Of a stretch of 64,000 nt of DNA, positions 6,071 through 6,943 are shown in pieces. The translations under genes and the position numbers were made by a program. How positions within the stretch are numbered: the stretch's first letter is position 1; every line of letters begins with the position of its first letter. Origin of the DNA: a candidate division TM6 bacterium GW2011_GWF2_28_16 (lineage in GTDB: Bacteria; Babelota; Babeliae; Babelales; UASB340); contig LBNX01000001.1 of NCBI GenBank assembly GCA_000989185.1, forward strand, positions 97,435-161,434, in the 5' to 3' direction. Below the pieces are notes generated by a model. It was not told the origin of the DNA. It worked only from the letters and a program-made list of their open reading frames with translations, and ran no database searches.

Positions 6071-6943
6071 ATGGAGACCTTTTACAAGTACCAGTCGCTG
6101 GGCAACGATTTTATATTAATAGACGCCTTTAATAAATCAAAAAAGTTATTAAACGAAAAAATTTCTAGTGCAAACTGGAAAAATTTTGTAATAAATTCAT
6201 GTAAAAGAAATTTTGGTGTAGGCGCTGACGGCGTTTTGGTTCTTACAAAATCACATGATAATAAAAATAATAAGCAAAATATTAATCAAGAAGTAATTCC
6301 TGAGCTTTTAATTTTTAATAGCGACGGCTCACAGGCTGAAATTTGCCTAAATGGCTTACGCTGTGCTGTTCTACATTTACATGAATATCACGACATAGAA
6401 AAAAGCTCTAAAATTAAAATGGGAAAAAAAATTATTAATTTTTCTATCAATAAAAATATTATAACAACACAAATATCTGAGTTAATTTATTCAGGCATAA
6501 AAAATATAATAATTAATAATAATCAAGAAATTATGGGACATGTTGTAAGCGTAGGCAATCCACATTTTATAATAGAGAAGCAGGTTACTCCAGAATGGGT
6601 ATTAATAAATGGCAAAAGCATAGAATCACACCCTGATTTTATAAATAAAACTAATGTCGAGTTTATCACGCCTGCGGCTGTCATCCTGAACTCGTTTCAG
6701 GATCCATATAAAAAAACAAAATCTATTAATGTTTTAGTCTACGAACGAGGTGTAGGCCCAACACTTGCCTGCAGTTCTGGAGCTGCGGCCATAACAGGGT
6801 ATTTATATCAAACACAAAAAATAAATATTTTACAAAAAATTACTTTAAATTTTTTGGGAGGACAAGTAAACTGTTTTATTGATAAAGATAAACAGGTAAA
6901 TTTACAGGCTCATGCAAAATTGGTTTTTAAGGGACAAATTTAA
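6071..6943 (+). CDS. dapF: diaminopimelate epimerase
   Basis: YQSLGNDFILID, NSDGSQAEICLNGLRC, VGNPHF and YERGVGPTLACSSGAAA, which supply both catalytic Cys contexts. It carries an in-frame hairpin element. Confidence 0.9.
   Translation: METFYKYQSLGNDFILIDAFNKSKKLLNEKISSANWKNFVINSCKRNFGVGADGVLVLTKSHDNKNNKQNINQEVIPELLIFNSDGSQAEICLNGLRCAVLHLHEYHDIEKSSKIKMGKKIINFSINKNIITTQISELIYSGIKNIIINNNQEIMGHVVSVGNPHFIIEKQVTPEWVLINGKSIESHPDFINKTNVEFITPAAVILNSFQDPYKKTKSINVLVYERGVGPTLACSSGAAAITGYLYQTQKINILQKITLNFLGGQVNCFIDKDKQVNLQAHAKLVFKGQI
6678..6705 (+). repeat. GC-rich hairpin mini-element in frame in dapF
   Basis: CTGTCATCCTGAACTCGTTTCAGGATCC, with stem ATCCTGAA/TTCAGGAT. It is a GC-rich blip in AT-rich coding sequence and encodes part of PAAVILNSFQDP. 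Confidence 0.85.

Follow-up and report, generated by a model that had tools for sequence, protein, structure and literature searches.

A 64-kb stretch of DNA (28% GC) from a metagenome-assembled genome (MAG) of candidate division TM6 (Dependentiae), referred to below as the window, contains a family of GC-rich hairpin repeats, some of which are located inside genes. With a probability of about 0.78, we regard these hairpins as solo copies of the oriented NTS/SRM-type repeat that flanks, and is recognised by, the Ssn GIY-YIG nucleases. The copies in the window are an AT-stem variant of the Ssn-related motifs (SRM), a kind of repeat described in 2025, and their insertion into genes is the most interesting extra feature. 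An earlier note, made from the sequence of the window alone, had considered the family undescribed; this has to be revised, because the family represents a variant form of the NTS/SRM repeats known from the Ssn system (PMC11893778) and occurs in many bacterial phyla.

Hairpin repeats in the window

The canonical unit reads (T/C)TGTCAT(C/G)C followed by four nucleotides, a CTYGN loop (once CTGCGA), four complementary nucleotides and G(G/C)ATC. GC-rich sequence with (T/C)TGTCAT(C/G)C at its start was found at all seven positions for which the earlier note had reported a copy. Five of these are canonical copies of 27-28 nt with an 8-bp stem and a loop of 5-6 nt, one is a long form whose outer stem is of the same kind and likewise 8 bp long, and one is a chimeric half copy. 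The stem sequences reported previously are exactly those of the five canonical copies, for which folding as DNA gave -5.6 to -8.4 kcal/mol (z = -2.1 to -4.8). The count of seven copies thus stands for the five canonical copies and the long form, but not for the piece at 2073-2114. This piece lacks the GGATC arm on the 3' side, its fold is not superior to that of shuffled sequence (z = +0.25), and it does not belong to the hairpins of this family.

Exact matches to TTGTCATCC occur five times in the window (0.26 expected), a number reached in none of 100 shuffles, and the full pattern occurs four times (0.01 expected), which bears out the proposal that this is a genuine repeat family. When the 9-mer alone was searched for in the window with one mismatch allowed, the excess was not significant (11 versus 7.3). 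A covariance model built from 128 copies recovered the five canonical copies with E values between 2e-11 and 4e-5 and detected no further convincing copy in the window. In an Rfam scan at the window copies no family was found, either at the gathering threshold or at E <= 10.

Three canonical copies are in genes. The copy at 6678-6705 (+) is within dapF, reads CTGTCATCC-TGAA-CTCGT-TTCA-GGATCC and codes for AVILNSFQDP; its GC-rich tract begins at 6670 and is about 36 nt long in all (PAAVILNSFQDP). The copy at 48126-48153 (-), antisense within waaA, has a 6-nt loop and one T.G pair and codes for DPGSQARMTS. The third, at 2027-2054 (-), runs antisense to a heparinase II/III-like open reading frame (ORF), in the part for its interdomain linker, and carries the ATGC/GCAT stem variant (TTGTCATGC-TGAA-CTCGT-TTCA-GCATCC). 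Close to it, at 2073-2114 (+), lies the chimeric piece, in which the 5' tag TTGTCATCC is joined to a solo repeat of a second family, CCCGTTCGCACTGAGCGTAG-TCGAAGTGC; this right-hand repeat reads CCCGTTCGCACTGAGCGTAG..TCGAAG.

The remaining two canonical copies are at 30264-30290 (+), in an intergenic position 58 nt past the stop codon of a methylmalonyl-CoA decarboxylase alpha-like gene and followed by a T-rich tail, and at 31126-31152 (-). The latter has a CGGA/TCCG stem, is the top match of the covariance model (51.8 bits) and overlaps hflX at its first codons or in its 5' leader; the true start of this gene is uncertain because the NCBIfam model matches only from residue 31. The reverse complement of the element tag gives an ATG here (GGG ATG ACA), in the frame of hflX and 27 nt after the first ATG (31119-31152). 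The long form, at 17889-17948 (+), reads TTGTCATCC-CCCA ... TGGG-GGATC, keeps the outer stem ATCCCCCA/TGGGGGAT around a 36-nt GC-rich interior and is intergenic, upstream of gltX. Since the NCBIfam gltX model matches only from residue 21 of the ORF (ORF end at 17902), the copy probably lies upstream of the true start of this gene. L122 has a comparable long form at 5031-5090 (-); here and below, handles of this form denote loci from other genomes.

Distribution and covariation of the repeat

Genomes were scanned, one per species, with the pattern TTGTCATCCNNNNCTYGNNNNNGGATC. The scan yielded at least 120 loci, and the matches listed contain 130 copies; counts over loci, copies and adjoining ORFs given from here on refer to these listed matches. 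The loci span Alpha-, Beta-, Gamma- and Deltaproteobacteria, Bacteroidota, many Patescibacteria, Melainabacteria, Legionellaceae, Coxiellaceae and Rickettsiales, as well as Treponemataceae (Spirochaetes), Fibrobacter, Verrucomicrobia and a Dependentiae single-cell genome, and the GC content of the genomes ranges from 31% to 70%. The tag was fixed in the search pattern, so its invariance across the genome copies is not independent evidence. The inner four stem positions were left unconstrained by the pattern, yet they are fully complementary in 112 of the 130 copies.

Covariation was evaluated in an alignment of 128 copies, 124 of them distinct. Among the distinct copies 97.8% of the paired cells are in fact paired, and shifting the partner by a single column lowers pairing to 37-58%. 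Cells in which both partners have changed number 143, compared with 42.7 in shuffled alignments, and none of 500 shuffles reached 143. The covariation that had been noticed in a handful of stems is therefore confirmed on a much wider set of copies. A minority stem class (TGAG..CGAA, CGAG..CGAG) has two central G/A oppositions in place of pairs, which we read as tandem G.A mismatches.

In several genomes the units are grouped. In L026 they are sometimes paired in inverted orientation, arrays are found in other phyla (L078:7150-7350 and 7750-8000, L063:2587-2985, L019:87-248), and an Azospirillaceae MAG contains four full copies with a spacing of 124 nt.

Association with GIY-YIG genes

In five loci (L015, L076, L078, L079 and L092) a unit is located at most about 50 nt upstream of the ATG of an ORF coding for a GIY-YIG protein of 91-97 amino acids. 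These proteins consist of a single GIY-YIG domain (PF01541, E = 1e-15 to 1e-17) that covers nearly their whole length, with no extra domain. A second unit follows the stop codon in L076, L078, L079 and L092, inverted in three of them and direct in L076, whereas the L015 locus ends within the GIY-YIG gene, so that no 3' unit is visible there. Of the 99 ORFs situated no more than 150 nt from a copy, more belong to GIY-YIG than to any other recurrent family, and no other family of nucleases or transposases, Y1 included, recurs in this set. Compared with UPF0213 structures, the flanked proteins gave only a weak match (1zg2, E = 0.0015), which indicates that they are not typical UPF0213 proteins. 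A search for an intact GIY-YIG enzyme accompanying the elements had been suggested before, and the suggestion proved fruitful: in other genomes the unit directly flanks small GIY-YIG genes. In a gammaproteobacterial MAG, runs of half units (TTGTCATCCTGAAC every ~20 nt) adjoin a GIY-YIG gene.

Comparison with the NTS/SRM repeats

The arrangement just described corresponds to a system published by Chenal et al. (2025, Nat Commun 16:2388, PMC11893778), which consists of the NTS/SRM hairpin repeats and the Ssn proteins, GIY-YIG nucleases specific for single-stranded DNA. In Neisseria the repeat, NTS, reads CGTCATTCCCGCGMAVGCGGGAATCYRG, and its relatives in other phyla were named SRM. The repeats flank ssnA, a gene for a 94-amino-acid single-domain GIY-YIG protein (CDD cd10448), and the NTS-ssnA-NTS or SRM-ssn-SRM arrangement is laid out like an insertion sequence. 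For binding by SsnA the hairpin has to be single-stranded DNA, and only one of the two strands is recognised; the cut is made a few nucleotides upstream of the hairpin. The conserved upstream sequence orients the repeat and is required for the interaction. Binding and cleavage were shown for four Ssn homologs, three from Neisseria and one from Wolbachia (all PMC11893778).

The unit of the window shares with NTS/SRM an oriented GTCAT tag directly 5' to the hairpin, present in all seven window pieces, and an ATC 3' to it. Common features are also a hairpin semi-palindrome of 20-50 nt, the existence of many solo copies beside copies that flank a gene for a GIY-YIG protein of about 94 amino acids (seen in other genomes, not in the window), the occurrence in many phyla and, by the 64-kb window count, the enrichment over shuffled sequence. 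The layout of the Neisseria NTS, CGTCAT-TCCCGCG-loop-CGCGGGA-ATC, is that of the window unit with one more T:A pair. The window unit differs in its stem, which is one base pair shorter (ATCC.. versus ATTCCC..), and in its CTYGN loop. The stems TGAA and CGAA, AT-rich and dominant here and in low-GC genomes, fall outside the published SRM pattern. Another difference is the location of the copies: four of the seven window pieces (three canonical copies and the chimeric half) are in coding sequence, compared with 2% of NTS in N. meningitidis (PMC11893778). A palindromic core of the same hairpin class is found in dRS3 of the pathogenic Neisseria (ATTCCC-N8-GGGAAT), about half of whose copies are NTS (PMC11893778); dRS3, however, was defined without the oriented tag, is Neisseria-specific, and is mostly intergenic and clustered.

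The published pattern, HGTCWYN(0-2)YYVSBRHN(0-5)WNVSBRGN(0-2)RNCYNB (PMC11893778), is a search tool and not a biological definition of SRM. It matches 36 of the 130 copies, all with GC-rich stems, and fails with the other 94. By manual reading, it misses the window copies because their AT-rich stems place T or A at the V, S and B positions, and the copy at 31126 appears to fail only at the last flank base. The shared layout, together with the restriction of the pattern matches to copies with GC-rich stems, leads us to read the window copies as the AT-stem variant of SRM.

Several points weigh against this assignment. The published pattern matches none of the seven window copies, its one match in the window (19141-19170) being a chance match that forms no hairpin. 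A GIY-YIG ORF is present in only 7 of the 120 loci, so the link to these genes depends on few loci and on the paper of Chenal et al.; when a repeat has solo copies by the hundred, a proportion of this order is nevertheless to be expected. Neither the 64-kb window nor the 10 kb preceding it yielded an intact ssn gene; the searches made included one with a local hidden Markov model (HMM) built from four flanked GIY-YIG genes. That the flanked proteins belong to the Ssn clade (cd10448) is our inference from their resemblance to known Ssn homologs in domain, size and context.

The unit comprises the non-palindromic 5' tag (TT)GTCAT, an 8-bp stem made of ATCC and four freely covarying pairs, the CTYGN loop, and a return arm ending in GGAT and followed by C. 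For the Ssn protein of an element flanked by TTGTCATCC, such as those in L079 and L092, binding and cleavage would be expected on the top strand of single-stranded TTGTCATCCTGAACTTGTTTCAGGATC, with the cut upstream of the tag. On this reading the hairpins of the present genome would have spread as non-autonomous copies through the action on single-stranded DNA of an Ssn that is either encoded elsewhere in the genome or has since been lost. Copies would have landed in intergenic DNA as well as in genes, and those in genes would have survived only where the added length was a multiple of three, the frame stayed open, and the added peptide came to lie in a loop or linker.

Alternative explanations

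The hairpins could instead be signals acting at the RNA level, i.e. intrinsic terminators or mRNA-stabilising stem-loops maintained by selection on the transcript. The copy at 30264, with its position 58 nt past a stop codon and its T-rich tail, passes a terminator-like scan, and a weak relative at 61323-61345 (-), the hairpin ATCCCAGA-CTAAAAA-TCTGGGAT (covariance model score 10.5 bits, E = 1.7), lies between convergent genes. The latter has no TTGTC tag, so it may be either a decayed copy or a plain terminator. The scan was, however, passed by just one of the seven copies (at 30269-30289), and four pieces are inside ORFs, in both orientations relative to the gene. A terminator has no need of an invariant asymmetric TTGTCAT tag and a CTYG loop in genomes of 31% to 70% GC, and a role in termination would leave the flanking of GIY-YIG genes on both sides unexplained. 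In addition, Ssn does not act on RNA (PMC11893778). We consider an RNA-level origin of the family very unlikely; the 30264 copy itself has the appearance of an intrinsic terminator and may have been recruited for that function, which does not account for the family.

The palindromes that interrupt housekeeping genes in Rickettsia provide a second comparison. The Rickettsia palindromic elements (RPE), attributed to Ogata et al. 2000, are reportedly about 100-150 bp long, restricted to Rickettsia, and found in frame in housekeeping genes; we know of no nuclease partner defined for them. The resemblance proposed by the earlier note holds as far as in-frame insertion is concerned: in both cases palindromes are located in frame in housekeeping genes of a reduced, AT-rich intracellular bacterium and add surface peptide segments. 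Otherwise it is an analogy only, the window unit measuring 27-28 nt and occurring in many phyla. An undescribed palindromic family, specific for the Dependentiae lineage, comparable to RPE and unrelated to known systems, would be consistent with the in-frame insertions, with the failure of the published SRM pattern to match the window copies and with literature searches, in which neither the element sequences nor the derived peptides gave a match; searches on YhbQ/COG2827/UPF0213 and on Dependentiae palindromes returned nothing relevant, and among follow-ups on SsnA, SRM, dRS3 or RPE from 2024 on only Chenal et al. was found. The cross-phylum scan largely refutes such a lineage-specific family, because the same 27-mer pattern occurs at 120 or more loci in many unrelated phyla. 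The SRM pattern does match 36 of the 130 copies, and GIY-YIG genes are flanked exactly as described for SRM-ssn-SRM. We hold a separate Dependentiae family to be highly improbable. Rickettsia is counted among the SRM-rich genera (PMC11893778), so a link between RPE and SRM is possible.

Mobilisation of REP-like sequences by RAYT, a Y1 transposase of the IS200/IS605 type, appears barely credible for this family, although the general look of the units, short GC-rich imperfect palindromes that in L026 sometimes form inverted pairs, is suggestive of it. REP sequences usually carry a GTAG head as their 5' signature, and no such head is present in the unit. The 99 ORFs adjoining the copies include no recurrent Y1 family, the recurrent one being GIY-YIG, and no Y1 gene was found in the window. 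The likeness to REP/RAYT that had been pointed out in the earlier note, like that to REP/BIME and IS200/IS605, lies in the logic of the system, not in its components: a hairpin in single-stranded DNA is recognised by a small nuclease whose gene the hairpins flank, and solo copies far outnumber this gene, but the nuclease fold is HUH/Y1 in one case and GIY-YIG in the other. The same analogy was drawn in the Ssn paper itself (PMC11893778).

Insertions within genes and at orthologous sites

As had been claimed, copies are located in frame within genes: in dapF (6071-6943), in waaA (47295-48686) and in the heparinase II/III-like ORF (1171-2829). Mapping of presence and absence in orthologues, proposed at the same time, revealed gain or loss at the waaA, mutS-upstream and heparinase-like sites.

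The clearest case is waaA. The segment DPGSQARMTS contains a 7-amino-acid insertion. Of 15 Dependentiae orthologs 13 lack it, and only the closest one (75% identity) has it in common with the window. The filled sites of the window and of L121 are exactly 21 nt longer than the empty site in L129, and the L121 copy has retained a perfect stem with an altered loop. In the AlphaFold model the insert is placed in low-confidence coil between the helix 262-277 and the strand 289-295. In the closest ortholog without the insert (L129:10775-10795, the empty site), the element strand has TTCATCC exactly where the insertion would be, a 7/8 match to the tag. It may reflect chance, a preferred target or the footprint of an excision. 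No clean target-site duplication was found at the filled and empty sites. Upstream of mutS, a copy is present in L121 and none is at the orthologous position of the window.

The heparinase-like protein has 26 extra amino acids in its interdomain linker, exactly at the 2027 and 2073 pieces. They are missing from the L122 ortholog, whose gene has a long-form copy of its own instead, near the N terminus. The 5' part of the window gene (ATG at 1047) is out of frame with the main ORF 1171-2829. The shift occurs at a run of ten A residues in an AT-rich perfect palindrome, AAAAGTTGGCAAA..TTTGCCAACTTTT (~1149-1182; region 1047-1185), at the position where the L122 sister gene has its long-form GC-rich copy; a frameshift, a slippage site and an assembly error are all conceivable.

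In DapF (GenBank KKP24778.1) the insert, residues 202-216, is predicted to be a coil between the strands 195-201 and 217-225, with a pLDDT below 50 in the AlphaFold model. The dapF palindrome is absent from the sister genomes, in which the corresponding loops are AT-rich and already 17-19 amino acids long. The addition of about 12 residues estimated previously is correct in comparison with solved structures, there being 24 residues between EF and VYERG versus 12 in 9mro, but not in comparison with the nearest relatives; the length of the sister loops indicates a hypervariable beta-hairpin loop rather than a clean insertion of 12 amino acids.

In-frame insertion is a recurrent outcome, and the length of the unit, 27 nt or nine codons, favours it. 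By our reading three of the six frames of the TGAA version of the canonical unit are free of stop codons. In low-GC loci, 10 of 74 copies are deep within long open frames, and the sister genome L124 contains a copy within the gene for RNase HII. In the near-identical strain L127, about 1 kb upstream of the window, the phosphoglycerate kinase (PGK) gene has two GC-rich in-frame inserts, at 8915-8975 and 9745-9780, which add 14 amino acids (DPSIHLASSALGANGV) and 10 amino acids (SLRQGYGRQD), respectively; both are absent from the L122 sister PGK. The first of them opens with the second-family core CCCGTTCGCCCCGAG.

Implications

These observations extend the reach of the Ssn/SRM system to a genome of candidate division TM6 (Dependentiae) and, by the scan, to Patescibacteria, Melainabacteria and others. 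As 94 of the 130 copies fail the published pattern, censuses based on it undercount the repeat. The comparison of filled and empty orthologous sites shows that the hairpins can insert in frame in the essential enzymes WaaA and DapF and, by the evidence from sister genomes, in RNase HII and PGK. For annotation, the repeat explains recurrent odd peptides such as VILNLFQD, ILKQVQDD and DPGS..GMT, and some dubious start codons.

A broader proposition, which we regard as rather unlikely, is that AT-rich reduced genomes (such as those of Dependentiae and Patescibacteria) may quite generally owe in-frame peptide insertions to the 27-nt Ssn-type hairpin, a source that would have been overlooked and that possibly also underlies RPE-like insertions. 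The hairpin might spread in genomes that have no ssn gene, and the dominant subtype, with its AT-rich stem, would be one that the published SRM definition misses. Spread of this kind could take place through mobilisation in trans or through DNA exchange in a shared host. Should the published definition indeed miss the dominant subtype, the reach of the Ssn system would be much underestimated.

A decayed GIY-YIG element of a second type

The window also contains a decayed element of about 390 nt with different terminal repeats, located between a Mur ligase gene and a short-chain dehydrogenase gene, which abut in L122, where the element is absent. Its left inverted repeat, at 14312-14355 (+), consists of CCCGTTCGCCCTGAGCGTAG, a GCAAC-TT-GTTGC hairpin and CGAAGTCGAATGGG; the right one, at 14557-14599 (-), has the 20-nt core CCCGTTCGCCCTGAGCGTAG in common with 14312-14331. 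Between the left repeat and the right end, at 14383-14580 (-), lies a remnant of a GIY-YIG gene that is truncated at the 5' end and represents the C-terminal half only. Its match to PF01541 (E = 7e-4, profile positions 43-76 of 78) is below the cut-off, and the local HMM from the four flanked genes gave E = 0.13. In a protein database search the remnant was 72% identical to P0243 (96 amino acids) and 66% identical to P0244 (94 amino acids), both full-length GIY-YIG proteins. An intact homologous element is present in L126, where the P0244 gene is situated between perfect 46-nt inverted repeats starting with CCCGTTCG. The right-hand part of the chimeric piece at 2073-2114 is a solo repeat of this second family and matches the inverted repeats at 14312 and 14599. 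A plus-strand ORF at 14336-14623 was considered as a gene and rejected as spurious, having no Pfam hit.

Other GC-rich hairpins and low-complexity inserts

GC-rich hairpins without the TTGTCAT tag are found in two further places. At 30207-30262, just upstream of the 30264 copy, GCCCAG..CTGGGC is accompanied by GCCTG-CTTGCG-CAGGC, and at 41015-41173, between mutS and tatD, there is a hairpin block of about 120 nt; the orthologous spacer of L121 lacks most of this block.

WaaA contains a run of 17 asparagines (residues 54-70; 47445-47500) and an Asn-rich stretch (48230-48300), both absent from the orthologs and modelled with low confidence, and DapF has an Asn/Lys-rich insert at residues 64-72 that is similar to the Asn stretches of WaaA. 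A second way in which loops have grown in this genome is the expansion of low-complexity sequence.

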